In this document: positions 4,820-56,234 of the stretch, piece after piece
Position numbering within the stretch: position 1 is the stretch's first letter
How the letters are laid out: the number at the start of each line of letters is the position of its first letter
Assembly (NCBI GenBank): GCA_973895155.1
Contig: OZ316895.1
Span: 20,226,803 to 20,290,802, forward strand
Reading direction: 5' to 3'
Source: Marsupella aquatica
Taxonomy: Eukaryota; Plantae; Marchantiophyta
DNA length: 64,000 bases
The notes under the pieces: model-generated
Databases searched by the model: none
The model's input: only the letters and a program-made list of their open reading frames with translations
Told to the model about the DNA's origin: nothing
Translations under genes and position numbers: made by a program

Positions 4820-6375
4820 TGTCGGATGCCGAATTAGGTAGTAGTGTTTAACTAGAGTTAAAATTAGAGTAACTACAGTTAGAAATAACCATAGTTAGAG
4901 GTAGAGTAAGGTTAAGCGGAGGAAGCGGATGCATAGTAAATGGTAGAAGGTCGAGACAACTTAGCATGGAGTGTCAAGCTGACTTAGGTGCGATTAAGTT
5001 AGGTTAACATTTATTAGGTTAGCATTAGTAGTTGTAGTACTTTGCATCTACCTCAATTCCTGGAATCTACCTCAATTCCTTATCTCCTCATGAAAAAATG
5101 GAGGAACACAGGATTGCCTAAAGGTAAGGCATGAGGAGATAAGGAATTGAATCTCGTTGGCAAGGGAAAACTCTGTGGTGCTGGAAGGAGCTCTTGAGAT
5201 AAGGAAATCTCATTACTCGACAATCTTGTTGTGGCAATAGAGATTAGCCGGCATTTCAATTTTGTGTTGTTGAGTTGAACCGCTGCTGCTATTGAGTTTG
5301 ATGCTGGTTGAGAACAATTGCTGCTGCTTCAAGCTTGTTGCTGAGAGCTTGCAGTTGCCGGGAGTAGTGCTATTGCATAAGGAGAGCTGTTATTCAATTA
5401 GAGCTCCATTGCAGGGAGAGCTTCGTGCTATGGAAGATGGAGCAATGCTGATGGGAGGAGTATTGCCACACAGTTGGCTTCTATTCAATTAGAGCTTGCT
5501 ACTTAGAGCTTGCTATTGGTAGGCTATGGAGAAAGCTCACTACATTAGTTGCTGATCGATCCTTGAGATTGATGCTGCTACCCTAAAACTCGTGGCTGCC
5601 TGAAGTAGCTACAGCAAAATCAAAAGCTTGAAAGTGTGGAGCTGGCTGGTGACTGGGTAGAGCAGCTTTGTGCTACTGAGCTATGAAGATTGAAGGTAGC
5701 TCACGAGACTGGGAAGCTATGGTGAGAGCTGCATGCTGCTAAAAGACTGAGCTATGGAGGAAGGCTGCTGTTGAAGAAGAAAAAAAAGGAGAGCAAAGAA
5801 GAAAATGGAGAAGCAGCATTGCGAGGCTTTGCGCTGTGGCAAGTTGCTTTGTGCTGCCTCGCGCAGCATAGTGTAGCATAGCGCAGTAGCTTGGTGCTAC
5901 AAAATGTTGATGGCGAGGGAGGAGTCGGGGATCGGTCTTGAACTTGCAACCTGTGTCTTGCTAAGGAATTTGAATGGGCTACCAAGGGAGTTGTCCAAGC
6001 TCTTTGTTTAAAGAGTCCACACCAACTCTAATTGAACTTGGTACAGCATCCGTTTCTAGGCTTTGGGAGGACTTTGAGGCCAGTTCAAAGTCGGGTGAGG
6101 GACCAACGAGGCTAGGGGAGAACCCCACAAGGTAGACCCAACTCCCGGGATTGAATTGGTTTTGAATTCAAATAGAATATGAGAAGTTTTTTTATATGCC
6201 CTTAAAGTGGCCGCTGTGTTAAGTAGTGGGGCTATTATGAAACCCAACACTTAGGGGATACAAATAAAATAACTAGCCAGGATTTTAGTGTTGCTGGTTA
6301 GATAGTTAGGCGTTAGTATTGCGGTATACCAGCAACTTGAGATACTTATGTTTTACTGGTTATCACCCATTCACG
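4820..6375. mobile_element. Truncated, internally deleted copy of LTR family B (same family as 29084-32206)
   Basis: Starts TGTCGGATGCCGAATTAGG and is near-identical to 29084-31004. It lacks ~29310-29733 and is cut off at 6375. Confidence 0.9.
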
Positions 6376-6908
6376 CTAGCAGCATCTAAAAAAACAGCAG
6401 GTCCTAACCAGGACCGAACTTGGTGCATACTAGCCACCATCTATGATCTAGTATCACCCAACAAGGGAACATTCTCCAGAATATAGGCGGGAGAGACATG
6501 CTGTTGCTCCTGTAAAAACCTCATCACACGCAGCATCTCCCAAAACATGTGAGAACGATGGTCTTTGAGACAAGATCCTATCCTAGCAGAGGAATGGCCC
6601 TGGCATGGCCAATCAGCAATCACGAGGTGAATCTCACTGACGAGTACTAAATCCGGCGCCCCCAAAAGTGAGATGTTTGTTGGCAAAGTGTGCTGATAAC
6701 CTCTGATAGCTGACAGGGGTAACAAATCAGGGAACTGCTGATGCAACTGAGCAACATGATGCAGTGAGACACGTCGGGCTGTGTCATCATGCTCCACATA
6801 GAGATATTGTTGCACTCTAATGCCAGCATGTAAGATAGCAGCTAGACTAGTGCTCATGCCACCAAATAGTTCCAACGAGCGAATATCCTCGATCCACAAA
6901 ATGGGAGT
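6373..6908 (-). pseudogene. Fragment of a C5 cytosine DNA methyltransferase (motifs I-VI), second copy of the retroelement-borne DNMT
   Basis: ORF 6441-6899 contains LELFGGM (motif I), YVE (II), WPCQG (IV) and LENV (VI). Colinear with and highly similar to 32561-33105. Confidence 0.9.
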
Positions 6909-7249: not shown

Positions 7250-8597
7250 TGTGGAATGGTTCAATAGTGCCTTAAGTGAAAGTATAACTCATTTTTTTGT
7301 TCTAGACAAGGAAGAGTAAGAAATACATTTTAGTGATAGCAAAGTATTTAGGGTTTTCAACTCTAAGTAACTAAGGAAGGCTAGTAGGAAATAATGTAAG
7401 GGAGAAGATATATTGTTCTAAGAAAGTGTCAAGGGATTAGTAAGGTCTTTATGGTAGGGCAGCAAATGTTCCGTCCTTAGTTACAATAGGTGACTAAGTT
7501 GGGTTGGAAAATGACCCGCCACTTGAAGTCTTAGTTTTGGTTAAAGATTTTTCCCATAGGTGCTAGGAGGTACTTAGAGCACTCTTGTGAAGTATGACGT
7601 CAAGTGAGGTCTCAACCTATGATTCCTTGTGTTTTGGTGAGACTTAAATTAACAAAATAGCGGGTCTCGGGAAAAATAGCTAATGGGTAAAATTTTTGGT
7701 CTAGGTCAAAATATAAGTTGACTAGTGTCCCCTCTATTCCTGGAAATTTGTGAAGGAATTTGGTTACTTTTTAGGAAGCGTGCAAAGTTAAGGAGAATTT
7801 TGCAAAACATAATAATTAACCCTTTTCACCTAATTTTAGAAAAGTGGTTATAAGTGTGTTTTTGTAGATATTAGTAAACCAGGATACACTCCTATGTCCA
7901 AGGATTCTAGGGATATACTCAGATGTCCTTTTGGCCTTATAGGTGAATTTTGGCAAGGGGTACAATATGGGTCGGTGAATTATATTCTTTTCAAAATAAA
8001 AAAATTCGACTAAGTGTAAAATGTGTCGACAAGGCTACCACGAGGCAAGAATGAGTCAAGCACAAGGGCGGTTGCAAGATGATTGAATAGACCAGGAAAT
8101 CACAAGGTGAAGGAGCTTGAGTGGGAGGAGGTTTGGAGGTCAAAGCATGCAACTCATGTGTGACATATTCCAGGGCTTGGAAGGAGTCAAAACAACAAGT
8201 TGTAGAGTGGGGTATGAACTATAGATTTGGACTATGTGTGTTAGGAGAACTTTGGTGATTGGACTTTGTGAGTTAGGAGGACTTGGGGGAGGTTTTGTTG
8301 ACCCCAGATTGAGCTTGGTAGGAGTTTAGTATAAGAAGTAAAGATTTCCCTTTGTGAATAAGAGGAGTCTTCCAATCTTCATTGTGACCATTAAGTGAGT
8401 GAATTTGAAGTGTAGGAGAGCAAAAGAAGAATCCATGATAGGGTGCAATCTTGGTCTAATCTTGAAGGGGATGTGCTAGTTCACAACCAAGGCCATGAAG
8501 ACAAACTACTTTGGACTTAGAGATGGTTGTAGCTTGAGGGTGGAAAGTACCTTCCCTGGTGTGTGGCGTTGAGAAGAAGTAAGAACAAGAGGAAGAA
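7250..8597. mobile_element. Diverged partial LTR family A copy, inverted relative to 2930-4793
   Basis: Begins TGTGGAATGG. 7520-7660 is the reverse complement of ~4380-4520, and 8370-8595 of ~3310-3570. Confidence 0.7.
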
Positions 8598-17317: not shown

Positions 17318-18641
17318 AGGTCTCATCGCAAAATAGTCCTAGAGAATACTAGCTATTTGCATGATCCTGCTGTAAGAAGACCTCCGCCATGGCTGCAGCA
17401 CCAGCCACTAGCAGGTTGGTATGTACTGACAACCATTATCCTCACCTGCCTAAGCCAACATTCCTGTCGAACAAATTCATCGAACAAGCGTCTTCATCGC
17501 AACAGCATAATTCGAAAACCATCATCGAATTCGCATGTAAATTATTGTCCATTAGATCATAAGAAACGAAGAGGCACCCTGGAATGACGATGAAGGGGTG
17601 TAACTGCCATTAGACAAATGATGGTAGAACAATTAGGGTTGGCGATAATAGCTCCCTTCTTGTTGCTCAACTTGATGTGTGCTATTGCCTCAGCATTGAC
17701 TTGAGCTGTCATCTACTACAATTGTACCTGCAGAAGCTGCCACGGGGCCATATTGTTTGCTGCAAGACCAGGGAGACATTGTTGACACGGCCTTCTTGTT
17801 AACATTGAAAATCTAGTACCTGTGATTTTGATTGAAGGGAGCAAAGATGCATCGGATCCTGTGCCGAAGAGTACACGCCATAGATTACGAGCTGTGACAT
17901 TGTCGTAGGATCCTGTGACGAAATGGCGAGCTTCACCTCGGGCATCAAGGAGAGGTCTAGAATTCCCTTCTAAATAGTGTCGCATTTGAAATCAGTAAAT
18001 ACTCTTTCTTGCATTTTTGTTGCAGAGATGGGTATTTTTGGAACAAATACTCACACAATTTAAGTTTTTCTTCGATCTCAGTCCAATTTTGACAATGAGC
18101 TTCACCATTTCTCTCATTAACTAATTGTTGGAATACCCACGAAATATGAGTAGCAGGTAACCTAAGCTGCTGCGCAATCCTGGCAAGCGTGGATCTGGTT
18201 CTGTCACTCAAGTGAAATTGGCGCACCTGCCGGGGCTGCAATTGCATCAGAAACAAAGCAAATTCACCTCCGGTAATCGTAATATACGGTGTTGCCCAAA
18301 TCTGGGCTTCCTTCTCTCGCTCTTCAGCTACCTCAGCTTCTTTTTTGTCTCGCGCTTCAGCTGCCTCAGTTTCCTTTTTGTCTCGCGCTTCGGCTGCCTC
18401 AGTTTCTTTTTTGTCTCGCGCTTCGGCTGCCTCAGTTTCTTTTTTGTCTCGCGCTTCGGCTGCCTCAGTTTCTTTTTTCTCTCGCGCTTCGGCTGATTCT
18501 TCAAGATTTGAAACCTGTTTCATCAACAAGCTGACTTTCCGAGACAGTTCGGAAGAATCCATAACCAACTATCGAAGTTGTCAGGAATGAGAAAAGGTCT
18601 CATCGGAGAATAGTCCTCGAGAATACTAGCCAGTTGCATGA
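17318..18641 (+). repeat. 47-bp direct repeats (17318-17364 and 18595-18641) bracketing the orphan ORF
   Basis: AGGTCTCATCGCAAAATAGTCCTAGAGAATACTAGCTATTTGCATGA versus AGGTCTCATCGGAGAATAGTCCTCGAGAATACTAGCCAGTTGCATGA, 5 mismatches. Confidence 0.85.
17957..18562 (-). CDS. Intronless orphan protein (~200 aa): N-terminal coiled coil with 11-aa repeats and a C-terminal helical domain with an RNxxAH (HEPN-like) motif
   Basis: Uninterrupted ORF with the EARDKKETEAA repeat (33-bp unit, ~5 copies, ~18330-18495) and LVNERNGEAHC. HEPN assignment rests on the motif only. Confidence 0.6.
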   Translation of the reverse strand: MDSSELSRKVSLLMKQVSNLEESAEAREKKETEAAEARDKKETEAAEARDKKETEAAEARDKKETEAAEARDKKEAEVAEEREKEAQIWATPYITITGGEFALFLMQLQPRQVRQFHLSDRTRSTLARIAQQLRLPATHISWVFQQLVNERNGEAHCQNWTEIEEKLKLCEYLFQKYPSLQQKCKKEYLLISNATLFRREF

Positions 18642-19199
18642 AGGAAGCGTAGTCATCACGGTGATGATTGACTCGGGCCACCCCAAGCTTCCCCGCCAAA
18701 ATGCAACCACGCCCTAAGAGATGCTGCGGTTACTGTCTTGCCCAAAGCTACAGCTCGAGAATCTGAATTTACAACGAGTGGCATCGAAACTTCCAGAAAC
18801 GTGCGACTCGGACCACAACTGGTTTCCCTAAGGTTCCTCGGAGCCTTCAAATAAATCTCGCCAACTTGTAACGCGCAACAAGCCCTGCTGATTGATAGTC
18901 TCCCAAAGCCTACCTTGAAGGCGACTTAATACGAAGACTTTCGGAACCTGGACTGCAAATTTGACGTCAGCAAATGGAAGGACAGAAGGCTCCAAATAAA
19001 AGAAAGGAACCGAACCAATTCGTCCGCCAAACTTCCACGACTTTGATCCAGATTCGCCGCAACCCCTCAGTCATAACTATATATGGCCCCCGTTCCACAT
19101 AAAACTTAAAATCTGCTATAAAATAACTATCTTCACTTTTTGGACAACTCTTTTTGCCAATCCATCTCTCTTTGGATGATCCCTAGACGTCATAGTGAT

Positions 19200-19901
19200 C
19201 AATTAATGTTTATCACACAAGACCTAAAATTCTCCACGAAACTCAGTCCCCTAGTCAGTTAAAATCTCAACAAGAGCACCAAAATGGCTCAACACACGGT
19301 CCAAAATGGCATAGGCAACTCCTTCACTACTTTTATCTGGCAATGCATCCAACTCAATCCATTTAGAAAAGTGGTCCACCATCACTAAGGCATAACGGTT
19401 GTGACGTCTAGTCAGTGGTAAGGGTCCAGCAAAATCTAAACTCCAACGATATCCCAAGCCCATGATCGGCAAGGGATACAGCTGCTGGGTAGGAGCATTA
19501 AATGATGCTCTCACTCTGTCACACACAGTACACAGCACCACAAACTACTGCACCTCAACATGCATTTCACGCCACCAATATTGGGTCTGGAATAAGTTGT
19601 ATGTCCATTTCACTCCAAAATGTCCAAGCTCTTCATGAGCATGTCGCACCAATCGTGCACACTGGGATAAAGGAGGTACCAACCGCACTATGTCATCATC
19701 CCAAACTCTCAACAAGTGAGATCCTTCCCATCTGAACCTCTTAGCTCGTTGTAGGATCCGATCTCTCTCCTTGGTGGTTATCATGCTTGGCATGCTACCC
19801 GTGCACAGATACATCACAACATTTGCATCATCATGAATATCATGTCCAGCAGACTCCTCACTAGAAATCTTTGGATCCACAAAGTCTGCATGGGGCCTCT
19901 C
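19200..19901 (-). pseudogene. Gypsy integrase (H2C2 + N-terminal rve), 3' truncated
   Basis: HAHEELGHFG...CTVC, WSLDFAGPLP, VDHFSKW, ILTD.GTEF. Confidence 0.92.
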
Positions 19902-22900
19902 TGTAGGAAAACCGTCAGCTCCAAACTAGACAACAATGCGGAACATGAGAGCACTCAATCTCACACTACACCAACAAGACACCACGATCATGGAGAAACT
20001 CCTGAAGGATCCATAGCTCATGAGATTGAACATGTGAAGAATGAGGGAGAGAATGCTCTCCCTCCAACCTATACCCCCCGAGGGGGACTAAGATGTGTGG
20101 GCCTAAATAAATGGATCTTATCCTAAACTAACCAAGGGTCAATTAACCCTAGCAAGGCCAAACTAACTATAGTCGGGAACTCGAGTCAATTCCTAACAAT
20201 CTCCACCTTGACTCCAGTTCACACAATGAGTCAAGTGATATACAATATGTAACTAGGTAACATATCTACATAGTCTTCGGTTTGGCCCTAACATTAATTA
20301 TATCCACACAATGACTAAAGTTATTGGTAGGTAAAACTTTGGTAAGCATGTCTGCTGCATTCTCCTCTGAAGCCACCTTCTCCAGAAACATCTGCTTCGT
20401 CTCAATCACCTCACGGATGAAATGATAACAAATACCAATGTGCTTAGCGTGGAACACAGGGTTCTTAGCCAGATGCAAAGCACTTTGACTATCACACAAC
20501 AGCACCGGTCTTTCAGGTGAAAGACCCAAATCATTCACCAATCTCCGTAGCCAGATCAGTTCCTTGGTTGCCTCGCAAGCAGCCATGTACTCAGCCTCAG
20601 TAGTAGACAACGCAACACACAATTGAGTTGCTTACTTCCAGCTAATACAACCTCCACCCAGCATAAACACATAGCCTGTAGTAGACTTCCTGTTATCCAA
20701 GTTACCAGCATAATCTGAATTGACAAAACCTCCCAACTCTAATGTAGACTCTGCTTTATCGTCAAATAGAATCCCACAATCTAAGGTACCTTTTAGATAT
20801 CGCAAAACCCACTTCACTGCTTCCCAATGAAGTTTACCAGGGTTTGCCATAAATCTACTCAAAATGCTAACGGCGTGGGCAATGTCAGGTCTATTGCATG
20901 TCATTGCATACATCAAACTACCCACAACGCTATCATAGGAAACCTGTTTCATCGCCAGTCTATCACTCTCACTAGAAGGGCAATCATTCTTTGAGAGTTT
21001 AAAGTGTGAAGCCAATGGAGTACCAACTGGTTTTGCATTCTCCATCCCATACTTGGCAAGTACTTTCTCAGCCAACCATAATTGCCTCTGCTCCCTATCA
21101 CGATGAATGTCCATCCCTAGAATCTTCTTGGCCTGACCCAAGTCCTTCATTGAAAACTCCTTACTTAGCATTGCTTTCAGATGGGCAACATCAGACTTAT
21201 TCTCAGCCAGGATCAACATGTCATCCACGTACAGTGCCAGTACAATGTAACCAAAGCGTGAGTAACTCTCCACCTCCTTCATGTAAATACAACAATCATG
21301 TTCACTCCGTGTGAACCCTTGAGACAACATGAAGGAATCAAAACGCTTATTCCATTGTCTGGGATTCTGCTTCAAACCATATAACGAGCGCAAGAGCTGA
21401 CACACCAAGTGTCTGGTCTTCTCATCACTAAAACCTAGAGGCTGAGTCATAAAAATCTCCACATCAAGCAATCAATGCAGGAAAACAATAATTACATCCA
21501 TTTGATCTAACTCAAGATCATAGAATGTCACAATTGCAAGTAAAACACGGATAGTAGCGAGTTTGACAACTGGTGAGAAAATCTCAGTGTAGTCCAAGCC
21601 CTCCTTCTGGGTGTACCCTTTGGCCACAAGGCGTGCCTTGTAAGTGCCATCTTGCTTCTTCTTGTACAACCATCTACACGGAACCAGTGTCTTCCCGCGA
21701 GGCATGTCCACTAAGCGCCAAGTTGAATTCTTCTTCAAAGAATTCATCTCCTTCAACATCACCTCCATCCACTTATCCTTCTCTGGAGAGGCCATAGCTT
21801 CTTCATAGCTAGAGGGGTCTCCATCTTCAGTGAGAAATATAACACCAGGATCATTGTCGTGCTCAACAACATGAACACGAGGATTTGCAAAACCAAATCT
21901 ATCAGGGGGTTGGCCAAGATTGGCCCTTGTGGATCGCCTCAATTGAGGAACTGCACCTCTACTAGAGGGACCAGCAGCTTCCTCGACACCATCAAGCTCC
22001 ATCGTAGTGGGTTCCTCCACTTGCTCCTCCTGATTATCCCGGGTTCTTGACAACCATTCTTTGTCAAAGACAACATTTCTGCTCACAACTACCTTGCAAT
22101 CGACAGGATCCCACAATTTGTAGCCCTTCTGCCCCGGACTAAAGCCTAGAAAAATATATTTCTTAGACTTGGGATCCAACTTAGACCCGTGTGTCTGCTC
22201 AATGTGAACATAGGCAGCACACCCAAAAACTCAGAGTCTAGAGTAATCAGCAGGTCTCTTATACCACAACTCAAATGGAGTCTGCATCAACTTACTACTA
22301 TGCAGTGACAAGTTGTAAACGTATGCAGCTTGGTTGACAGCTTCAGCCCAAAAATTATTGGGCAACTTGGACCTACATAGCATGTTGCGTGCTTTCTACA
22401 GTAATGTCCGATTCAACCGTTCTGCCACTCCATTTTGCTGCGGGGTCTCCGGTACAGTGTAATGACGCTTGAGGCCAAGGTCCCAACCAAGTTGGTCAAA
22501 CTCGTTGGACTTATACTCGCCACCGTTATCTGACCAAACACACTTCAACTCCTTCTAGTTTGTAGCTCCACCATGGCTTTCCACTCTTGAAGATCTCAAA
22601 TACTTGAGACTTCTTCTTCATGTAGTACAACCAACACATTCGAGAGTAATCATCTACAAACGTCACAAAATATCTGGCTCCACCCAACGATGGCTCCGGC
22701 GCTGGACCCCAAACATCCAAATGTACATACTCAAGAATCTCATGAGAATGGTAGGAACTAGAACTAAAACTCACTCTCCTCTGCTTGCCATAGATGCAAT
22801 CTTCACAAAAAGAAAGTTTTCCAGATTGTGCGCCTTGCAGCAAATCTCTATTTGCCAAGGCTGCCAATCCATTACCACTCAAGTGCCCCAAACGTGCATG

Positions 22901-25228
22901 CCATAAATCTATGGCTTGTGTGCGACCAGATGTTGATGGTGCTTCAATTGAAGCAACCGACGATGCCACTGCATCCAAACATTCCACCACAGAATCCACA
23001 TGCTCCACTCTAGGAGCAATGACATCTCCTTGTAAGATGTATAAATTAATTTGTCGGAGTGCCTTAATCAAAGATACTTCACCTTTGACAACAAAGAGTG
23101 CACCATCACGTGCAGTGAAATGATATCCACCAGCTTCCAAAGCACCAAGAGAAATCAAGTTCTTAGAGATGTCTGGTATGTGCCTGACTTCCGTCCATGC
23201 TCGCACAACACCATCAAACATCTGGAATTTGATAGTCCCCATGCCAACAATCTCACATCGGACCCCGTTGCCGATTTCCACGCTACCAGTACACGGTTGG
23301 TAAGTAGAGAAGTAAGATCATGTCGGACACACGTGATAAGAGGAACCCGAATCCAACATCCATTTATTGTCATACACAGAATTAACCGCACCAATACATA
23401 GCACTTCAGCAACATCCTCATGATCAGTAATCATAATGCCAGCTGAAGATGAAGATGCACCATCAGAAGTAGGACGCTTCTGCCTGGTCAAAGAAGGGCA
23501 AGACCACTTGGTGTGGCCCTTCTCATGGCAATGCCAACACTGAACCTTCTTACTACGGGACTTAGATTTAGATCTGTTATGAGATCTAGATCTAGATCGA
23601 TCCATAGTACGCTCAGTTGATCTACCTCTAACCATTAAGGCAGCAGACTCATCATCACGGGAAGATAGATGTCGCTTGCTCCATTCTGCAAGAACAGTAG
23701 CCTTCACCGCATCCAGCTTCAACGTAGTCTTGTCATGTGTGATGACCGTTACCAACATCAAAAAGCTCTTCGGAAGCGACATCAACAAATGCATTGCAAG
23801 GTACTCATCGGTCAACTTATTTCCCGCCGTGGTTACCTCGTGCACAATCTCATCAAAGAGACTAAGATGATCATGCATGTTTCCACCATCCTGCAACTTC
23901 AACCTGAATAGCCGCTCCAACTGGTAAATGCGAGTAGTCAATGAAGTACTTTGGTATAGCTGAGTAAGCATATCCCAAATCTTCTTGGCGTTACGATCCA
24001 TCTCCAACACATTCTTGAGAATGTTGTTTGCCAAGAACAACTCAATTGTACTACATGCCTGCACCGACATGTCTTCCCACTCCTCATTTGTAAGAGTCGA
24101 GGGCTTCACTCGAGTGATGGTCTTCTCAAGACCCTGTTGGATCAACACGTTGGTCACCTTTTAAGTCTAGAGGCTAAAGCTGACCTTCCCATCAAACTTT
24201 TCCACCTCAAACTTTGGTGCTGCAAGCTTTCGTGAAGTGATTGATGCTGACACAAACACACAGGAAACATAAGTACCAAAATACCTCTACACACAATCAC
24301 CAAAAAATGAAAGTTGGAAAAAGTGGAACTGTAATGCACCACCGCGTAGCCTGCAAGGTACACTACCAATATCTGAAAACGATTTTGCAAAAAATTGCTT
24401 CTGAAAAAAGTTATCCAGAAAAAAGTTTTTTTTCCTCCTCCTCAAAGCACCCGCGGAACGGTGTTCCGTGGGTCCCTATTTTTCCCCACCGCAAAGCTAT
24501 CGCGGAACGGTGTTCCGTGGGTCACAATTTTTTCCCCCATAAGAGATCAAGCCAAGCACAAAGACTCCATAGCCAAAGAGATTAGGCTACAAACAGCAAA
24601 ACATAAATTGATATTGCTCCACACTCGCTAGATGAAACGCTATGAAAATGTCACCGAGACAAAGTGCTCGCCGATGTGCACAATGAAACGTGAGACTGTC
24701 CGCCTGACAATACATTCAAAAAACCAAAGACACATCCGACACTTCTGATGTGAAGTTTAAATCGGGAAATTGTCACTCCTTCTGAACGCGAAACCTCCAG
24801 CGCACAACGACCAGTGACACGATCACACAAATTATTGAAAAACAATCTGGTCTGTCACCACGATTCAACACAATGAATACTCTCACCACTGTCCAGGCAA
24901 CCAACGTCAAACACGAAGCTCTGATACCACTTGTAGGAAAACCGTCAGCTCCAGACTAGACAGCAATGCGGAACATGAGAGCACTCAATCTCACACTACA
25001 CCAACAAGACACCACGATCATGGAGAAACTCCTGAAGGATCCATAGCTCATGAGATTGAACATGTGAAGAATGAAGGAGAGAATGCTCTCCCTCCAACCT
25101 ATACCCCCCAAGGGGGACTAAGATGTGTGGGCCTAAATAAGTGGATCTTATCCTAAACTAACCAAGGGCCAATTAACCCTAGTAAGGCCAAACTAACTAT
25201 AGTCAGGAACTCGAGTCAATTCCTAACA
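19902..25228 (-). mobile_element. Full-length Ty1/copia LTR retrotransposon
   Basis: 297-bp LTRs (19902-20198 and 24932-25228, TG...CA, 8 transitions counted). TSD CTCTC on both sides. PBS TGGTATCAGAGC (24918-24929, tRNA-iMet) and PPT AGGTGGAGAT next to 20198. Confidence 0.98.
20266..24240 (-). pseudogene. Copia gag-pol (gag, CCHC knuckle, protease, integrase, RT, RNaseH) with several stops and frameshifts
   Basis: CWHCHEKGHTKWSC; WMLDSGSSYH; LWHARLGH...CEDC; FVDDYSR; YKARLVAKGY; LYVDDML; STTEAEY; ADMLTK. Confidence 0.96.
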
Positions 25229-26961
25229 CTCTCCAATGATGCCACTGCACCAAGACCATCCACACTCTGCAACAAACACAAATAAGCATATTAAGCATGC
25301 CAACCTGGCACCATCTCCTCGTCTGCCTCATCATGCCAACGTGCTCCTGTCAAATCCCTTTGGCTCAGACAGGGATTGCGACTCAATCCATCAGCATCAG
25401 ACTGATGTAAGTGACCAGGTCTATGCAAGACCTCAAAATCATACTCCTGAAGTATGAGTGCCCAACGAGCAAGCTTACCAGTAAGCTTGTCTAACTCCAT
25501 CAACCATTTGAGTGGTTGGTGATCCGTAACAAGAGTGAAGGGATTACCAAACAAGTAACATCAAAAATGAGCCACTGCCCACACTGCAGCCAAGCATTCT
25601 CCCTCATAGGAGCCATACTTTGATTCTGCAATGTTGTTCAAATCGACTGGCATATGCTACCACAAACTCCCTTCCCTCATCATCACGCTGAGTGAGCACT
25701 GCCCAAGTCCCAACACGCTCCAATCAGTATGTAACCTAAATGGACGCCCCCTGATAGGTCTCCTCAAGATGGGCGCTGATGTGAGCTTCTCCTTCAACTG
25801 ATGGAAAGCTCTATCTTGATTAGCACCACTGCCACTCATGGTCCAGTCTCGTAAGTAACGTCAAAGGTTTTGCAATTGCACTGAATCCTTTCACATAGCT
25901 TTGGTAGAAGTTTGCAAGCCCCAAAAATGCTCGGACTCTACTCACATCTGTAGGCTGAGGGATCCCAGCAATTGCCTCCACCTTTGTTTGTTGCACACCC
26001 AATCCACCTGGATAAATGGTGTGCCCTAAATATGCAATCTGGTCATGGAAGAACTTGCATTTGTCAGGATGTAGTTCCAGATGCAGCTTCAATCCATGTT
26101 ATCTCAGCCGCTCAAACACCTACTGCAAATGTACATCATGCTCCTCCATAGTGTCACTATAGACAATAATGTCATCGATATAACATTTGGCAAAATCCAG
26201 GTTTGCCAAAATCCGATCCATGACCCTCTGAAACTCAGCTGGTGCATTCTTCAATCCAAACGGTAAGAATAGCTAGTGATACAACACATCCTTCTCATGA
26301 GCATCAATCCCCTAGAATGTTGTCTTCTGCCTGTCACCAATCCTGATAGGCAGTTGGTGATATCTAGCCCTGAGATTCAATGCGCTAAACACTCTCGCAT
26401 GCCCAATGACATCAAATATTTCCTCCGGTGTGGGCATGGCATACCTGTCAGACTTAGTCTGCCGATTAATTGGAAGATAGTCTCCACACATCCTCTTGTC
26501 AGTCCAATTGCCATGCATATCCTTCTTTGCTGGCATCACAGTGGTAGAAGCATACTCACCAAATGACTTCTCTACAAGTCCTGCTGCCAACAAATCCTGG
26601 CATCTTGCCTGAATCAATGCCCTCTCCATATCTGAACCGATATGGTCTCCGAAAGATGGGCGCATCAACTGCCAAATCTATCCGGATGCCTGGTCCCTTT
26701 AACATGCCCAAATCCTGCATGTTGAAAGCAAAACAACTTCCATAACTCCGTAGAAACTGTTGTACACGTCGTCTCTCACCTCCAGTGATCTTGGGGCCAA
26801 TAGTTGGCTCCCAACTGTCAATGGTAACCTCGGCAGAAGGTGTAGAGAACGCCAATTGTGGTTGCTATGCTGCAACCTTAGGAGCAGTAATACCATGCTG
26901 CTGCAAAAAAAGAAAGCCCACTGGCCTCTCCACTGACTCCCCATGAAGTCCAGAAATGACA
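25229..26961 (-). pseudogene. Gypsy RT and RNaseH of the DNMT-carrying element
   Basis: [32 protein letters not shown] (~26180), FLGLANFY, LHTDWS, LVTDHQPL, ADGLSR. Confidence 0.95.
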
Positions 26962-27011
26962 ATCTGTGGCACTGTCGCCCCCTGCTCTGATCTCTAAGGA
27001 CCCAATAGAGG

Positions 27012-28888
27012 GGGCCCGACCTCCGTGACAGGAAACAGGAAATAGTGATGATCATAACAGGAAAAATAGTGGAACAAAACAGGAGACTTGGTACTATCAT
27101 TCACAAAAAATGGCTTAATTTTGGACCAAACCAAAGAGGTCAAATTCAACATAAACTCAAAAAGATGGGGAAAACAACAATTATCGGAAGACGCCTTTAC
27201 TAGCGCTTAGTCCTAACCAAGCATTTGATACCGTTACAAATATCATTAACAAAATACCCGCTCACCATCTACCAAAATGATCAAAGAGAATGGTTTATAA
27301 GGCAAGAAAAGGTCATCCTCGAGAATGCATGCGAAAGAAATCCTCACGTTGTCGCGTGGACTGAATGCAAGGGTCACCTCGGGAAAATGGACTGTTTCTG
27401 GCTGCAATCCAGATGAGTGACAAACACAATTCGGGGCCCAAACTCAAACACTTTACTTTCTGGAAATCTCGTTATCAATACAATGGGTGCCCTTGGACGG
27501 GTCACTTGTGGAAGTCTGATCTCTAACCCTTCGACGGGCTACTATCTATCTTCCATCGGCTCTCGTCCACTCAAAGGCTATCAAGTCAAAAAATTCACGA
27601 AATCCAATTACTCAAGTGCTCAAGCTCACAACTCAGAATCTCTAGCTCGCATAGCCAACGATCCAACACTCAGGTTCCTGGTCCACACTCGGCAGCACCT
27701 CAAACCTCAATCCAAAATCTCCACGAATGATCAACTCCTCTGGACTGAGCTGAAGCCCAGCCCTCAAAAACGCCTCAAAAGTAGCATCCCCGCCCGATGA
27801 GTCATCGCCAAACGGGTTCAGAACTCAACAGCCAGACTCTTGGTCGCGAGAAGACGAACCAACGGCCCTTCACATCTCAATTGCAACCAACTCCTTAACA
27901 TCCGCATGCCCAAAACTCATTAGAAATGAAACACCAATTGTCGCTCAGAGTCGAGCTTGAAGTCGAAACAATTTGACTCCAAACCATTCGCAGCTCACAG
28001 AAAACGGAACGCCAATCGACTTCCTCAATCCTGGTCGCGGCATGGAAACGATTTGTCATGACATTCTCCCCCAATAAACCTGAGCAGCCTCCAGTCTGCT
28101 CCACTTTAATCAACATCGTCTAAGTCTGAACCAAAATCGGAACTCAAACTTATCCCATGCGCCTGGACCACTTCTCCTTCAAGAAATCCAAAATCCAAGT
28201 CAGAATCTGCTTCAGCTTCCCTCTTTCTTCCTTTAGAACTTAAACCTTTCGAACCTGTCTGAACTCCCTTCTCTTTGCCCAAATCCGAGTCTAAGTCCTT
28301 TGAATGCGCCTGGACCAGCGCCTCATCTTCATTTTCACTCAAGTCGGAACTTGAGTCCATTCCTTTATCAGTTCTCCTCTTAAAGACTTTCATTTTTTTC
28401 CCTGCATAAGGTACTTGGTGAATAGTCCCATCCAACTCTTGAATTGTATAGGTAGCATTCGGGTGAACAGTCACCACCACATATGGACCTTGCCACCTTC
28501 GAGCAAACTTGTTTCGGCTCAAGTGTTGCTCGTCCAACTTGCTTTCGTAAATCAAAACCCAATCTCCTTCCTTAACCATAACCGGCCTCAAACGATGAGT
28601 CCGATCGAACCTTGCCTTGTTCCTTAGCCACGCCATTTTCAATTGTTTCCGAGCCACTTCAATCTTTGCAAGTAACAGCCCAAAATGTTTGATCCTTCGA
28701 GCCAACAACTCTTCTCTCGAAACTTTGTCTTTCCAACCAATCAATCTCCAACTACAAATATCCTCCTCAAGAGGCATCATCGGCAAATGTCCAGTAAGCA
28801 ACTCAGCGGGAACATATCCGGTAACAGAACTGCAAGTCATCCGATCAGCAAGCAAGGCAAGTGGAAGAAGACTCGACCACCTGCCAAG
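27012..28888 (-). mobile_element. Inserted fragment of a different gypsy element (integrase C-terminus with GPY motif plus 3' non-coding region), flanked by a 50-bp duplication
   Basis: ORF 28106-29032 switches after ..ATD to WSSLLPLALLADR..TGYVPAELL..KFARRWQGPY. 26962-27011 equals 28889-28938 with 1 mismatch. Confidence 0.85.
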
Positions 28889-31800
28889 ATCTGTGGCACT
28901 GTTGCCCCCTGCTCTGATCTCTAAGGACCCAATAGAGGAAGAGCATCCATATTGAGGTGTTACTAAAGATTGTAACCGGCGTTGCTCTGCCAAGGCTAAG
29001 CTCACAATCCAAGTCAAAAAATTAAGATCCATAGCCTAACCCAGAATATGACGGCGGGCTGCTTCAATCACTAAGGGTACTGCTATCGGATGTCGAATTA
29101 GGTAGTAGTGTTTAACTAGAGTTAAAACTAGAGTAACTATAGTTAGAAGTAACTGTAGTTAGAGGTAGAGTAAGGTTAAGGGAAGGAAGCGGATGCATAG
29201 TAAATGGTAGAAGGTCAAGACAACTTAGCATGGAGTGTCAAGCTGACTTAGGTGCGATTAAGTTAGGTTAACATTTATTAGGTTAGCATTAGTAGTTGTA
29301 GTGCTTTGCATACAATTGAAGGGACGGCCTACTTAGCGGAATTTTAGAAAAGTCTTAGGATAGAATTAGATCTGGAAATTCAGCAAGTATGTAGTCTTAG
29401 GTTCAAGGAACACACCGGAAAGTTTTCAAGTAAAACGGAGGTCGGGGCACGATACTGGAGAATTATGAAATAGGGGTTTCATTATAAGTGCACTCAAACG
29501 GGATGCCGTCTAAAGTAAATTATGGGTTCTTAGTACAAGGTAAGCAGTCTTATAGGAGTTTGCTAAGAAGGCCAGGTGTCATCATGGGTCCTTCTCATAG
29601 GGAGACAAAGTCCAGGAACAATTTACGTTACGGCCAAGAGAGGTGCAGCAGAATTTCAGCAGCAATTCAGCAATGGCAGCTCGATGCATTGAAGAGAATT
29701 TGAATCCTTCCATAAGGATAACCGGGTTGACTCTGAAAAAATGGAGGAACACAGGATTGCCTGAAGGTAAGGCATGAGGAGATAAGGAATTGAATCTCGC
29801 TGGCAAGGGAAAACTCAGTGGTGCTGGAAGGAGCTCTTGAGATAAGGAAATCTCATTACTCGGACAATCTTGTTGTGGCAATAGAGATTAGCCGGCATTT
29901 TAATTTTGTGCTACTGAGTTGAACCGCTGCTGCTATTGAGTTTGATGTTGGTTGAGAACAATTGTTGCTGCTTCAAGCTTGTTGCTGAGAGCTTGCAGTT
30001 GCCGGGAGTAGTGCTGTTGCATAAGAAGAGCTGTTATTCAATTAGAGCTCCATTGCAGGGAGAGCTTCGTGCTATGGAAGATGGAGCAATGCTGATGGGA
30101 GGTGTATTGCCGCACAACTGGCTTCTATTCAATTAGAGCTTGATGCTTAGAGCTTGCTATTGGTAGGCTATGGAGAAAGTTCACTACATTAGTTGTTGAT
30201 CGATCCTTGAGATTGATGCTGCTACCCTGAAACTCGTGGCTGCCTGAAGTAGCTGCAGCAAAATTGAAAGCTTGAAAGTGGGGAGTTGGCTGGTGACTGG
30301 GTAGAGCAGCTTTGTGCTACTGAGCTATGGAGATTGAAGGTAGCTCACGAGGCTGGGAAGCTATGGTGAGAGCTGCATGTTACTGAAAGACTGAGCTATG
30401 GAGGGAGGCCGCTGTTGAAGAAGAAGAAAAAAAGAGCAAAGAAGAAAATGGGGAAGTAGCATCGCGAGGCTTCGAGCTGCTTGCGCAACATAGTGTAGCA
30501 TAGCGCAGCAGCTTGGTGCTACAAAATGTTGATGGCGAGGGAGGAGTCGGCGACCGGTTTTGAACTCGCGGCCTGTATCTTGCTAAGGAATTCGAATGGG
30601 CTACCAAGGGAGTTGTCCAAGCTCTTCGTTTAAAGAGTCCACACCAACTCTAATTGAACTTGGTACAACATCCGTTTCTAGGCCTTTGGGAGGACTTTGA
30701 GGCCAGTTCAAAGTCGGGTGAGGGACCAGGGAGGCTAGGGGAAAACCCCACGAGGTAGACCCGACTCCCAGGATGACTCGATAGTGGTTTTGAATTTGAA
30801 TAGACTATGAGAAGTTTTTTTTATGTGCCCTTAAAGTGGCCGTTGTGTTAAGTAGTGGGGCTATTATGAAGCCCAACACTTAGGGGATACAAATAAAATA
30901 ACTAGCCAGGATTTTAGTGCTGCTGGTTAGATAGTTAGGTGTTAGTATTGCGGTATACCAGCAGCTTGAGATACTTATGTTTTGCTGGTTATCACCCATT
31001 CACGCGGAAGTACTCTCTGGGTAAGGTCTCCAAATTGAACAAGGGCCGATCTGTATTCCTGTGGTAGCCGAGACTCAGTGGCATAACCCGAGACTCAGTG
31101 GTAACCCAGAACTCAGGGGCGTTCCAACATTCAGTTGTGGGCCGAGCTAGAGCTTTCTTTCGTGAGTATGTTGTTTTAAATATAGTGTGTAAATTCTGGT
31201 GATTGTAAGAGTTACCAAGGGGTACCCTCGCTACTCATGTCACAAGGAGGTTCTACTGCTGCCATTTCCTGTGTGACAACCAGAGTCGGAGTTATGGTAG
31301 TTGAGTGACCTGTGGTTAAAGTAGAAACTTAACCCGAGTTAAGTAGCAATCATCTAGTTACACTTAGGTTAACTTTTTCCAGTGACTACTAACCGGAGTT
31401 AGCACCCTGGGCCTGGTTTGGTTTGGGTTGGCTTTGGCTTGGAGCCCTGGGGTGCTGTGTGAGAGAATAAGAGGAGAAGCAGGGGGCTGCCTCCTCACTT
31501 GTTCATTCCTACCCTCTCTTGTAAGGCTGAAAGCTTGGAGGCTAAGGTTTTCATTTCCAGAGGGCAGCAGCATTGGTTTAAGGTACTTGGGAGGGTGGAT
31601 AGTGAGCTAGTCCACTAGGTAGGCGGCAAGGAGAGAGTGAAGGAAAGTGTTGGGATCTGAACTTGTACTATGCCTTGTAGTAAAGACTCGTGTTGAAGCC
31701 TCAGTCTTAAAGCATTGTCTAGTGAGTATGTGAATCCAGTGAGTGTGTATGTCGACGTTGTTATGATGTGACACCAGAGGGGTGAAGCTTGAAGCCTGGG

Positions 31801-33150
31801 AGTGAGCTCAGACTCGATCACTTGCCTTGTTGGGATAGGAGGTGACAAACCTGAAGCTCTTGGTGAAGGAAGCGGAGGGAACTCTGGGTATATTGACCAT
31901 AGCAAGAGTTTGTGGGGACAGCTTGTGGGGTTGCTTGCCGTGTTGAGATCGGGAGCGAGGTTGTGTGAGTGCTTCCTAGTGGGGAAGCAAGGGAGTGATA
32001 ACCACCCTTCAAGGTTATCTTTCCAACGGTGGAAATAAAACTGCCTAGTTGGGTGTGTGAGTGGAGAAGAAGGGAGTCAGTCTAAGAGAAATAGACTTGT
32101 TGTCCTACTATTTGCCCGTCCTAGGAACCCGGACAACGATAAGAAGGGGCATAAGTGGTGAATTTAACTCTAAGGGAGAGTTAAGCCCCATTGCAAGGTG
32201 TTGACAACTGTTGTGGGGCAAGTCTAAAATCCCATAGCACGCTCACACTCATCAGCAGTAGGTTCCGTCAGCTTGCTGTGTTGAGAATCCCAAATTAACC
32301 CCGGTCCACCATTACGGTAGGCATACGATGAGGGAAAACTCACCAAAGTGGGGAGTGCTGCACGTGGCTGACCAATCCGGTTCACCACTGTCAATGGGGA
32401 GCGATCATCATATTGCACCAACTGTGCATGACGGCCAATATCCAAAATGTGGTCCACGGTGAGCCCAACAGGCCGCACAATGTGCTGATATGCCCTCCGC
32501 AAAACCTCAGGTGACATCAACTTGGTCCACCATAATCGTGGACGATGTGCCATTGATCCGACGCTAACAGCATCTAAAAAAATAGCAGGTCCTAACCAGG
32601 ACCGCACTTTGTGCATACTAGCGACCATCTGTGATCTAGTATCACCCAACAAGGGAACATTCTCTAGAATGTAGGCGGGAGAGATATGTTGCTGCTCCTA
32701 CAAAAACCTCATCACACGCAGCATCTCCCAAAACATGTGAGAACGATGGTCTTTGAGACCAGATCCTGTCCAAGCAAAGGAATGGCCCTGGCATGGCCAA
32801 CCAGCAATCACGAGGTGAATCTCACTGACGCGTACTAAATCTGGCACCCCCAAAAGTGAGATGTCTGTTGGCAAAGTGTGCTGATAACCTCTGATAGCTG
32901 ACAGGGGTAACAAATCAGGGAACTGCTGATGCAACTAAGCAACATGATGTAGTGAGACACGTCAAGCTGTGTCATTGCGCTCCACATAGAGATACTGTTG
33001 CACTCTAATGCCAGCATGTAAGACAGTAGCTAGACCAGTGCTCATGCCACCAAACAGTTCCAACAAGCGAATACCCTCGACGGGGTATGTCCACAAAATG
33101 GGAGTGGTGTCCAATGGGGACAGAGTGATCAAACTAGGAATGCCATCCAT
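28889..33150 (-). pseudogene. DNMT3-like C5 cytosine methyltransferase domain, split by a solo LTR (33150-32207 and 29083-28889)
   Basis: Motifs in canonical order: LLELFGGMSTG (I), YVE (II), GWPCQG (IV), LENV (VI), AHRPRLWW (VIII), ECERAMGF (IX). Beyond the LTR, ARRHILG*AMDL (X). Confidence 0.92.
29084..32206. mobile_element. ~3.1-kb solo LTR (family B)
   Basis: Termini TATCGG (TGTCGG in the 4820 copy)...TTGACA. TSD ACTGC/ACTGT. It interrupts the DNMT frame. Further copies at 4820 and 63887. Confidence 0.9.
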
Positions 33151-33154
33151 CAGG

Positions 33155-33855
33155 ATGGAAGTCTTTCAACTTAGGCCATGCTCTGAAGGGAGATGCGGAA
33201 AAATCCATTCAAGCACTGCTCAAGGAGTATGAAGATGTGTTTGCATGGAGCCATCACGATTTGACTGGAGTCTCCCCTGAGTTGGGAGAACACACGATCA
33301 ATTTAAACTTGGGGGCTTACGCCGTACGGCAGCGGCAACGTTGCATGAACCCAAGGTACTCCATCTTGGTGAAGGAGGAGATTGATCGTCTTAGCTTCTA
33401 GCCACAGATATCATCTACCCGGTAATGGCCAGTGACTAGGTGTCTCCCATCGTCATCGTGCCGAAGAAGGGAGGTACAGACGGGAAGCCCAAAATTTGCA
33501 TCTGCCAGGACTATCATAAACTAAATAACGCCACTCGGAAGGATCACTACCCGATACCATTCATAGGTATGGTTCTAGATATGGTAGCCTGTAATGAAAT
33601 CTATACGTTCCTTGACAGTATTTGGGCTACAATCAAATTTGGATCCGACTCTCAGATCAGCTTATAACAACGTTCACCACGAAGTGGGGGACGTTTGCAT
33701 TTTGCAGAATGCCGTTTGGATTGTGTAACGCCCCGACCATGTTCCAGAGACTCATGATGAATATCTTCCATGACTTCCTACGGGAATTCCTGGAAATATT
33801 TATTGATGGCTTTGCCATCTTTGGAACCATCGCCATGCACCTCAAACATTTATGC
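33155..33855 (+). pseudogene. Gypsy RT fragment related to the 440-2830 element
   Basis: EYEDVFAW, SPIVIVPKK, CQDYHKLN, GYNQI, MPFGLCNAP, FIDG. Confidence 0.93.
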
Positions 33856-35490
33856 TGTAGTATCACACTAGGGACATAAATTAACATTTAAGATCCAAAA
33901 CTCGGTATTCGTTCCCATAGAAGAACATGTAAGGAATAATTTTCTATAATTTAGCACTTATGAATGACTTAAGTAACAAAAACACAAAGGGTGAGCCTTT
34001 TACTATGATTGCTCATCAAGGCATAGTTTTGAATATTTGCTTAACATTGTAAATAAAATTAACAAATGGAAACAATTAACAAAACACAATGAAAATCTTG
34101 AGGTATGGTGAGAGAGTTAGGAAACAACCAAGGTGACACCTCAACATAACTTCATTTGATATGATTTAGGTGGTATATCCGCAAGAATATTTATGGAAAG
34201 GATTACGGTACTAGGATGATTACTAAAATACCGTCAACATGTCTCAACTTTTCCTTTTAAGGTACTGAGTGGAGACTAGTAATCAATCACTTTTGTATCC
34301 AATCGGTACTTTGTGTCACGATTAAGAGACACCATCATGATCAAATTTGAAGCCATAAATAATTGGTAAGTAACAATCTTTGCATCCCGTGCACAAGCAA
34401 TGTCACGTCAAAAACTATGAATCAAGAACTAAGGAATATGTGAAACATCACCAACAAGGAATCTATTTCCACATACTCAAAAGATTTAACAATCACAATG
34501 ATTTTACTTCAAGGGTCCAAACTTCTCATTCATTTAGACTTGAAGGGGGAAGAATTCCTTTGTACTAAGTACTCATATGCAATGGAGTGCTTGTTACAAA
34601 TGGAGGTAACAAAGTTGCAATCTTGCAACTGAGCGCTCATAAAATTTCTTCACACAAGAAATGACATGAGAACTACTATCTATAGGCTAGCAGGAATCAA
34701 CGGGAAAAGAGATAATGAAAGGACATGCCCTTTCTTATCTCAAGGGTCATGGGTAAAAGTAAAGTAATAAAATTGTACTACAGAAGTACCTAAGTTTCAG
34801 TGGAATGTTCCTGGAATGAAAAGCTAACTAAAAGATATTTCAGGTGTTAACTATTGTAAAAGTGGAATTAGTGGTAAAACTAATGAATAGGGGTTTTATC
34901 AAAATTTTAATTTCTAAACTAAAAGTCATAAAAATGTGAGACTTTGTTGAAGTGGTCTTTGATGTATATTCTTTATGCTGACAAAATATGAGACTTTTCT
35001 GAGGTTCCTAAGTGCCTCAATAAAATAGGTAAAAGTGTTAAAAAAATTACAGAAAACAAAAAAAACGGAAAATGTTCTAAGTGTTGGGCGCATGCGTGTA
35101 TAGGCTCATAGGCGCATAAGCTCATTAGCGTTTTCGCGTCTAAGCAGAAAACAACAAAACTAAAATATTTTTAACTTTCAAACCACAAGTTGGTTTGAGT
35201 TGAGATTTTCAGGGTACGTTCTACTACGTAAGGGCTATCTCCTGGAAAAGTATGGGACTTTTCTGACTACTTTAAGTATTTAACTAAAATTGTGTAGATC
35301 TATATAACTTAACTATGGTCGCAGTAGAGCTAATTTTGTTGGAGTAGTGTCGTCGGATCTGGTTGCTGAGCTCCGGTGTAGGTGTTGGTCTGCGTAGCTT
35401 CTCGAATACCATCCATGTCTTGAGTGTGATGCCGATAAAAAGGTAAAGACTTCCGCTATCGTTCAAGATCCAGAACAAGAAGTAGTCTCC
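33856..35490. mobile_element. AT-rich LTR-like insertion, truncated, with deletion of the host RT-C/RNaseH
   Basis: Starts TGTAGTATCA exactly where the RT frame breaks. Non-coding. The host resumes in integrase at ~35490. Confidence 0.55.
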
Positions 35491-36707
35491 GGTGCGGGTA
35501 CATCCTACTAGCCATAGACTATTCCACCAAGTGGGTGGAAGCTCGGGCTACGGTAAAGGATGATGTCGCTACCAGCGCCAGGTTCTTGTATGAACAAATC
35601 TTCACTTGCTTTGGGCCACCCTTGGAATTAGTCAGCGATTGGGGAACGCATTTCATCAATAAAACCGTAGAGCGCCTTACGGAACGGTACCTGGTCAAGC
35701 ACCGCAAGACCACCTCATACCATCCAAAAGCCAACGGATTGACGTAGACGGCGACCGGGATCATTGGGAAAATCCTCAACAAAACAATAGTCGCGCACAA
35801 AATAGATTGGGATGACAAGTTATACGCTGTTGTGTACTCGTACAACTTGGCTTACAAGACTACTACCAATCACAGTCCGTACTTTCTCATGTTTGGACAA
35901 CACTCGTTGGTTTTGGTTGAGTTTGAAATTCACACACCGTGGGTGAGTATTTGGGATCGCTTATCCAAGGCCGATAGTTGTTCGGACAGAGCTTACCGGA
36001 TTAAAGCATTCTAGATGAAGCTTGGGTACTAGCTGCCCAACACGTAGCAAAGCAACAGGCACACTAGTAGAAACCGGGGTGTTTTATGACTAAGTTTTAT
36101 GACTGCCCATGACTCCTTGTGACTAAAGTTTGGGGGGTATCAAGCCAGTCGTAATTTTGACATAGCGTCTTATTTAAAGTGACTGAAATCGAGTGGTCAG
36201 CTATGTGACTAGGGTTTAAGACACATTTTGTGACTAAATAATGACCAAATCCGTACTTGGGCATTTTGGGATTTGGAGAAGGTGTAGTCTTACAAATGAC
36301 TGCAAAGTAGTCATTTGTATGACTCAAAATGAGATATGAATTAGTCACAAACAGTCAGTGAGGAAGAGTAGCCTTTTGCATATATGACTGGTGCTATGGT
36401 TCAATATCGGAACACAGGCGACTGATTATGACTAGTTGGTCTTAAAAGTTTAGAATATATGGGCACATTAGTGACCGATGATGACTACAAATGACTAATC
36501 ATTCTTAAAAATCTTAAGATTGGGCTAGACTGGTTGGTCTTATTGGGGACCATGATGTAATATATCACGGTCATATCTTAATGACCCAAAATGACTCATT
36601 AGTCTAGTTCACGACTGCATTCTTTGACCCTTTTGGTCAAAGATTTTGACTCGACCTGAGGCAATTGCACCCTGCACATAGCACTAGAACCATGACTAAT
36701 AGTCAAC

Positions 36708-51100: not shown

Positions 51101-51320
51101 TCCCTTGCCAATAACTCTGGCTCCTTCTAGGGTATGGATTATGTGATTTCTCTCTAGCTGCCCACCTACCTGGGACTTGATGAGGGCCCTGTGCATCTTG
51201 CACAGGTGCATTTTTCTGTGAGCCCCCTGCATCTGGGTCTCCATTCATATCCAATCTTTCCTCTTCACCCCACTCTCCAAGCCCCATGTCTGTCTCCATG
51301 TCATCACCCTCTTCCCCCAT
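48149..51320 (-). CDS. CACTA TnpA-like protein (multi-exon; exon structure approximate)
   Basis: Exon 49965-50595 has W..I...W EY...RILKQERHRLKRMW..PPPSLELDQWTRLI...SELMSNARGKV..AGRGSY (Ptta/En/Spm-type). A coiled-coil exon lies at ~49360-49625. The last exon has FHGKVVPDDHVVV...LPFP...IADAVGSLVLWP. Confidence 0.8.
50482..50555 (-). repeat. 18-bp coding repeat (PGRGGT) in TnpA
   Basis: CCACGGCCTGG repeated four times, giving PGRGGRSGRGGTPGRGGTPGRGGTP. Confidence 0.85.
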
Positions 51321-51497
51321 AGCTTCTGCACAGCACCCACAACCAAACAGGGAGAATCAGCACACTAAATTCAAAGTATCAATCAATTTCATGCATATCC
51401 AACTATCCTAAACATCATTCCAGGCAGCAATTCCCGTTATGTGACTCTGTGCAGGTAGTCATCCTCAACCTCATACTTGCCAATCGCCAGCTGTTGC

Positions 51498-56094: not shown

Positions 56095-56234
56095 GTAGAT
56101 TCACAGTCACACCCCACGCAGCAGGAAACAACAATCACTTCAACTGCGACCAACCATGACAAGATGAGTTAGTTCAAGGATCACATTTATTACAAAATTG
56201 TGTTTTATACAAAAATATGAGGGACTCCTACTCC

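Follow-up and report, generated by a model that had tools for sequence, protein, structure and literature searches.

A 64,000-nucleotide stretch of the liverwort Marsupella aquatica (GenBank assembly GCA_973895155.1, contig OZ316895.1, positions 20,226,803 to 20,290,802, forward strand; hereafter the window) carries on its minus strand the decayed remains of a Ty3/gypsy retrotransposon with a DNA methyltransferase (DNMT) domain. Comparison with relatives revealed that the DNMT is of DNMT3 type and that, in the sub-lineage of the window, it is not part of the pol polyprotein, where an earlier note on this DNA had placed it. It ends a first open reading frame (ORF1) encoding Gag, protease (PR) and DNMT at a conserved stop codon, beyond which ORF2 encodes reverse transcriptase (RT), RNase H (RH), integrase (INT) and a PHD finger. 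The context of the stop suggests that it is probably read through to make RT.

Domain order and relatives of the window element

Self-comparison of the window and junction reads revealed one DNMT-RT-RNase H-integrase region split by three nested insertions, as the earlier note had read it, and intact relatives are colinear with the window across all three. A Pfam scan of stop-free fragments missed DNMT and RT, and translation with X at stops recovered both; PF00145 (E 9.7e-7), RVT_1 (8e-25) and rve (2e-9), the three families for which a scan had been proposed, were all found, as were RT_RNaseH (2e-22) and Integrase_H2C2. The DNMT motifs on the minus strand are LELFGG at 33063, GWPCQ at 32802, ENV at 32664, AHRPR at 32550 and ECERAMGF at 32250, with RRHILG beyond a solo long terminal repeat (LTR). 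The window copy is a dead, truncated and decayed internal fragment: the DNMT has five in-frame stops, four of them within motifs I-IX and the fifth in motif X, there are further frame breaks in RT and RNase H, and gag, protease, PHD and the terminal repeats of the element were searched for in the 64-kb window and not found, both ends having been lost. The 1-nt shift previously placed at the A7 run 26905-26911 is real in this copy, but it is decay, because it is missing from about 57-66% of the contig depth in each of four public runs. A second, diverged DNMT subfamily occurs in the same organism, seen as loose ends at window position 32266 in 4-11 contigs of three runs.

Fifty-one longer homologs were obtained. 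Among them are Marchantia, Calypogeia and Sphagnum proteins of 41-67% identity, in which gag and protease precede the DNMT and, in some, RT, RNase H or integrase follows it. Metagenome loci numbered 299, spread over 36 of the 64 parts of the collection, and the best 80, chosen by their DNMT, were used. Protease was present in 61 of the 64 loci with enough upstream DNA; among the 61 with enough downstream DNA, RT lay within 900 bp of the DNMT in 50 and a pol domain within 3 kb in 55; and 68 of 70 full DNMT spans were colinear. The full order in relatives is Gag-PR-DNMT-RT-RH-INT-PHD, without introns, in dozens of loci from several genera. RT-RH-INT is the Ty3/gypsy order, with a DDE integrase and no tyrosine recombinase. 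Thus the DNMT-bearing element represents a real Ty3/gypsy family and not a one-off, with its nearest named relatives in liverworts and mosses, and the gypsy element with a DNMT ahead of RT described in the earlier note is borne out. The note had also held that copies of this RT family lacking the DNMT would speak against it; no refutation came from this side, 50 of the 61 loci with enough downstream DNA having both, but copies without DNMT cannot show among the 80 loci because these were picked by DNMT, so that they were not fairly sought. Many Marchantia gene models, the P0002 cluster, correspond to ORF1 of the element, and four of the 15 models listed are located on the V chromosome (Mp_Vg00370, 00480, 00540 and 00690).

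Quick trees of DNMT (without host DNMT3) and of RT (64 of 65 proteins, P0310 left out) were built with SH-aLRT support only. In the DNMT tree all PR-DNMT-RT elements, including those of the window, Closterium and Klebsormidium nitens (KFL_009030040, P0286), form one 33-row clade (SH-aLRT 99). In the RT tree the window belongs to a group (support 97) that also holds Marchantia, Calypogeia and Sphagnum-like elements, which by itself would point to a bryophyte or another seed-free plant as the likely host, and a Coleochaete transcript is a close pol relative. A large RT-RH-DNMT-INT-PHD group lies apart from the PR-DNMT-RT clade, and is separate in the RT tree too (99).

In this sister group (P0025-P0052 and P0358-P0493), one named relative of which is from Haematococcus, the DNMT lies after RNase H and before integrase. 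The complete order RT-RH-DNMT-INT-PHD was read in 34 of the best 150 cluster representatives, and 566 clusters score E <= 1e-30. The position suggests that the domain changed place within pol, or that green algae acquired it in two separate captures. Two close relatives labelled cyanobacterial or Obscuribacterales (P0074 and P0531) are probably mis-binned plant or algal elements. PF05869, which we take to be Dam, was found with a PHD finger between RNase H and integrase in another gypsy protein, P0335. This arrangement is like that of the DAM-LTRs (bioRxiv 10.64898/2026.05.21.726589).

A conserved stop codon ends ORF1

At the DNMT-RT boundary of the window, TAG (26867-26865) is followed by CAA CCA. 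The earlier note took this TAG for decay. At the corresponding junction of the Sphagnum-like subfamily, so named because the junction peptide of L003 matches S. fallax P0037, a stop was found in 36 of 36 aligning loci (29 TAG, 7 TAA) and in 30 of 30 after removal of near-duplicates; elsewhere in this alignment no codon has a stop rate above 0.17. Locus L038 is unbroken: an ORF1 of 1369 codons (Gag-PR-DNMT) is followed by TAG CAG TTA and, in the same frame, by an ORF2 of 1047 codons (RT-RH-INT-PHD). The junction of L039 is also TAG CAG TTA and that of L067 is TAG CAA CCA, and the context UAG-CAR-YYA is therefore exact in the window and in these three loci; it is shared by the window and two other subfamilies. 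UAG-CAR-YYA is the type I readthrough consensus of tobamoviruses (PMC3542737), and the stop of tobacco mosaic virus (TMV) is read through at about 10% in planta (PMC2754532). None of the 29 variable places listed for contigs of public runs of the window's organism falls within 26859-26872. Marchantia proteins P0002, P0155, P0162, P0163 and P0167 all end 97 residues past motif X, and the closest pol homologs begin shortly upstream of RT.

We conclude that TAG 26867-26865 is a conserved ORF1 stop and not a lesion. Because the stop is conserved and has the context UAG-CAR-YYA, the DNMT is placed at the end of ORF1, with RT beyond the stop. The DNMT sits in the Gag ORF whether RT is reached by readthrough or by splicing or restart.

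Several observations weigh against readthrough. Variant-free runs of 10-16 bases occur elsewhere in the same variant comparison. The Sphagnum-like context is CAA CCC in 25 of the 30 copies, missing the last consensus base, and an in-frame ATG comes next. The stop is not required family-wide, because it is missing from a distant subfamily (six loci with none), in which the DNMT is in the same ORF as RT, and from five annotated proteins (P0250, P0266, P0279, P0281 and P0286); a conserved stop between PR and DNMT was sought in the distant subfamily and none was found. Coleochaete protein P0242 begins 124 residues before RT, which is further upstream than the expected position of the stop. No consistent stem-loop was found 3' of the stop in seven sequences, one of them (L022) taken from 3 bases early, with z-scores of -0.2 to -2.6. 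Finally, gene models P0009, P0010, P0013 and P0037 treat the stop as an intron.

These gene models agree with an explanation in which the family is the same but the stop is removed by splicing, as happens in Ogre, or an internal promoter or restart gives access to RT-RH-INT, the DNMT still being made with Gag. In the Sphagnum-like subfamily the stop is followed by a pyrimidine tract that ends in AG and by an ATG, and a weak junction promoter is known in Tca2 (PMC2194720). However, the boundaries differ among the four models, as they do when predictors avoid stops; the frame is kept across the stop in same-frame loci and in L038 and L039; CAR-YY is preserved despite three base differences between L038 and the window; and there is no ATG near the stop of the window. 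We therefore regard splicing or restart as unlikely.

The other stops of the window copy fall at Arg and Gln codons, typical of C-to-T decay. This pattern fits the proposal that a host DNMT3 gene or pseudogene was joined once to a gypsy fragment and that the TAG is a methylation-driven CAG to TAG lesion. The proposal is refuted by the junction of unbroken L038, in which the stop is present, by the stop fixed in 30 of 30 copies where other Gln and Arg codons reach at most 0.17, and by the domain order of the 80 loci; the same order and spacing recur in dozens of loci of several genera without introns. Its probability is negligible, and the once-rearranged, intron-containing host gene that the earlier note had allowed for is not borne out.

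Identity of the DNMT and selection on it

The DNMT motifs of the window run from I to X in order and are colinear with those of DNMT3A. With a profile built from 20 DNMT homologs, the top PDB match was DNMT3A (1.8e-22), against 2.3e-9 for DRM2, over only part of the profile, and 6e-9 for M.HhaI. The predicted structure of relative P0053 (pLDDT 92) had DNMT3A/3B as its best fold match (top 6f57, E 5e-19). The catalytic PC, ENV and RxR are present in the window and are kept in 132, 141 and 139, respectively, of the best 150 representatives of 50%-identity clusters. The intron-bearing host methyltransferases DRM, with permuted motifs, and CMT, with a chromodomain insert, were rejected on the I-X motif order and the partial DRM2 match. 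Thus the element DNMT is a DNMT3-type, intronless and unpermuted domain with its key residues kept, the window copy carrying stops, which upholds the earlier assignment to DNMT3 and not DRM or CMT.

The dN/dS comparison suggested earlier gave 0.11 for the DNMT between L038 and L039 (RT 0.05) and 0.19-0.23 for the window versus five relatives; the ratios are rough, because dS against the window is 1.4-2.4, near saturation, and dead within-family pairs give 0.31-0.91. The ratios indicate that the DNMT is under purifying selection in the family.

Termini of the relatives

In two subfamilies of relatives, a repeat A is found at the 5' end and the arrangement PPT-B-A-B (PPT, polypurine tract) at the 3' end, and two ordinary LTRs, as supposed in the earlier note, are absent. 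These elements start with TGTC and end with CA. An exact 4-bp target duplication was found at six of the eight loci with both ends, which corresponds to five of seven insertions because L056 and L073 share one site. The inner B|A join resembles GACA-NN-TGTC in all 14 loci, which were chosen for having the join, and is a perfect palindrome in four. At the A|B join, A runs to its exact end, the point at which the primer site begins, and is followed directly by the start of B, at which the PPT ends. In 14 of 19 loci the best pairing partner of the 14 bases that follow the first A (A1) is A+162-166, which lies about 27 bases below a TATA-like box; the sequences involved differ between the two subfamilies. 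Since this pairing beats all 200 shuffles in only three of the 19 loci, the evidence for a self-primer is its shared position. At their common site L056 (5310-14979) has the A-internal-B-A-B form and L073 (536-9666) the A-internal-B form; the latter form, also seen in L046, may have arisen from recombination, one-LTR circles or assembly collapse.

The ends, duplications, palindrome and likely self-primer suggest integration of a two-LTR circle. Self-primed cDNA, with B+A as its LTR, would be closed to a two-LTR circle, and the DDE integrase would open this circle at the inner palindrome, leaving A-internal-B-A-B and a 4-bp duplication. If true, the circle model would account for the hitherto unexplained DIRS-like repeats of an element with a DDE integrase, as well as for why two-LTR finders miss the family.

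A possible role for the DNMT

We lean towards a mechanism in which Gag-PR-DNMT3 is the main product and a minority of ribosomes pass the conserved stop, yielding RT-RH-INT-PHD. As ORF1 would give the abundant product, the particle would take up as much DNMT and protease as Gag, and the protease would then free the DNMT from the ORF1 product. In or on the particle, the DNMT would likely act on cDNA, methylating it before integration or as it occurs, and such methylation may either mask the element as host-like DNA or pre-silence new copies. If the stop is leaky, the TMV figure implies about 10 times more DNMT than RT (PMC2754532), which argues for a bulk job on cDNA or the particle and not for a passenger domain. 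Catalytic activity of the element DNMT on DNA is more likely than not; cDNA as its substrate has a little less than an even chance. That a green-plant lineage both shifted its gag-pol recoding point to a position downstream of the DNMT3 that it had captured, so that the enzyme became a Gag-level particle component that methylates cDNA before integration, and integrates a self-primed two-LTR circle opened at the GACA-NN-TGTC palindrome, is a combination rather unlikely to hold as a whole.

The DNMT might instead be kept for DNA or RNA binding, or act on host chromatin at the insertion site. The PHD finger following the integrase of relatives resembles those of CHD4, PHF21A, KDM5 and UHRF1, which read unmodified H3 tails, and this likeness makes chromatin targeting plausible. 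In yeast, no methylation by the K. nitens domain was seen, a result that weighs against methylation of cDNA, although its authors call it inconclusive (PMC5890265). On the other hand, related DNMT3 domains borne by DIRS elements methylate CG in yeast (PMC5890265), and the catalytic Cys, ENV and RxR are conserved among clusters defined at 50% identity. We consider this alternative quite improbable. The many annotated Gag-PR-DNMT models in the genetic model Marchantia polymorpha, which can be mistaken for host methyltransferases, make the question testable in a land plant.

Organization of the window locus

The features of the window are as follows.

6373-6908, minus strand: second DNMT fragment, with 93% identity to 32561-33080; next to it, an incomplete copy of the solo LTR (4822-6376)
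19122-19901, minus strand: zinc finger and core of the integrase; the C-terminal part and PHD known from relatives are cut off
19902-25228, minus strand: nested copia element, LTRs 97% identical, CTCTC target duplication
25229-25859, minus strand: RNase H and linker, decayed
25860-26858, minus strand: start of ORF2, linker and RT, decayed; YIDD at 26182-26171
26859-26867, minus strand: conserved ORF1 stop TAG (26867-26865), then CAA CCA; CAR-YYA readthrough context
26868-27011, minus strand: remaining ORF1 tail, with the copy-specific frame break in run 26905-26911
27012-28888, no strand assigned: 1.9-kb insert between 50-bp direct repeats (26962-27011 and 28889-28938, 98% identical)
28889-29083, minus strand: DNMT motif X, with one stop, and the first part of the ORF1 tail
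29084-32206, no strand assigned: solo LTR of another family, between DNMT motifs IX and X
32207-33141, minus strand: DNMT3-type methyltransferase, motifs I-IX, four in-frame stops; element broken off just upstream

A copia-free form is present in contigs of three of the four public runs (X1, X2 and X4), and no contig bridging the solo LTR or the 1.9-kb insert was found among the contigs listed. The solo LTR starts with TA (TG in the copy at 4822), ends with CA and is flanked by ACTGC and ACTGT, a 5-bp target duplication with one mismatch. The 1.9-kb insert contains a C-terminal integrase fragment from another gypsy family (MLVIN_C, E 0.017, below cut-off).

The second DNMT fragment is joined by a 4-base overlap to the deleted solo-LTR copy, which starts exactly at the LTR end. 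It has sense codons at three stop positions of the main copy, adjoins a coiled-coil-like frame and is enclosed by inverted repeats of 78-85% identity (3306-4742 and 7289-8596). The region looks like a captured, rearranged duplicate.

Elsewhere in the window, fragments of other gypsy pol regions on the plus strand, and the end of a further LTR belonging to the same family as the solo LTR, were found at 547-2531, 33503-33852, 35439-35912 and 63887-63992. A minus-strand frame of 203 codons at 17957-18568 contains a 33-bp tandem repeat and no Pfam family above cut-off. The minus-strand ORFs at 48149-58387 are presumably a CACTA transposase cluster, with a BRCT-like frame at 56605-57096 and a PHD-like frame at 57680-58387.

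Comparison with known systems

The stop context in the window, L067, L038 and L039 is that of tobamoviruses, and RIRE2 has been named as a gypsy candidate for type I readthrough (PMC3542737, PMC2754532). In contrast to both, the stop of the window family, known here from sequence, follows protease and DNMT and not Gag, and one subfamily has CAA CCC. Ogre/Tat elements likewise have an ORF boundary after the protease (GAG-PROT / RT-RH-INT), and an extra domain between PROT and RT (aRH) occurs in TatI/II, but Ogre has an intron of about 270 bp at the boundary; self-priming as in Tcn1/Tf1 is found in some plant lineages (Neumann et al. 2019, PMC6317226). The available part of that plant LTR survey does not mention a methyltransferase, PHD or Marchantia, and its two-LTR search would presumably miss A...BAB elements. 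Troyka is also an unusual gypsy-like lineage with short LTRs (Kojima 2025, PMC12440569), but identity was rejected: as described in the part available, it is found in animals only and has CG..CG ends, a 3-bp target duplication and no methyltransferase, whereas the relatives of the window element have TG..CA ends and a 4-bp duplication. REM1 and Gypsy-7a_cRei, PHD-bearing algal gypsy elements, were rejected as well, no DNMT or split repeats being described for them in the sources available.

EpiLTRs are LTR elements with methyltransferase and chromatin-reader domains (bioRxiv 10.64898/2026.05.21.726589). They differ in that their DNMTs are sister to DNMT4 and occur with DAM and a chromodomain; the same preprint names streptophyte Gypsy-DNMT3 as known, and 'land plant' and 'bryophyte' are absent from the text available. 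In the literature covered, which was partial, with subscription papers, Repbase and supplements mostly outside, no description was found of land-plant copies, an ORF1 stop or readthrough, or circle integration. A Gag-level DNMT behind a conserved leaky-type stop, together with the permuted-LTR anatomy, appears to be undescribed; the capture of DNMT3 by a gypsy element itself is already known.

The closest known system is KnitGypsy-Dnmt3 of K. nitens, which has an intronless Dnmt3 in the gypsy Pol ORF and DIRS-like repeats A-coding-B-A-B (de Mendoza 2018, PMC5890265). De Mendoza and colleagues proposed cDNA methylation, and they leave open the question of why a silencing enzyme is retained by retrotransposons; Sarre et al. 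2025 repeat the 2018 result. The available part of the 2018 account does not include land-plant copies, a readthrough signal, self-priming, the palindrome or target duplications. The two systems share the unpermuted, intronless Dnmt3 in a gypsy element; the A-coding-B-A-B repeats occur in relatives from two subfamilies, the window copy having lost both ends. K. nitens protein P0286, which we infer to be a KnitGypsy-Dnmt3 copy, has the order PR-DNMT-RT-RH-INT and falls with the window in the 99-supported DNMT clade. The window family is thus most likely, on these trees and domain orders, the KnitGypsy-Dnmt3 lineage and not the separate land-plant capture that the earlier note had supposed. In KnitGypsy-Dnmt3 the DNMT is reported to share an ORF with RT, whereas in the window sub-lineage a conserved stop separates the two in the same frame, which makes this sub-lineage a variant of that lineage.

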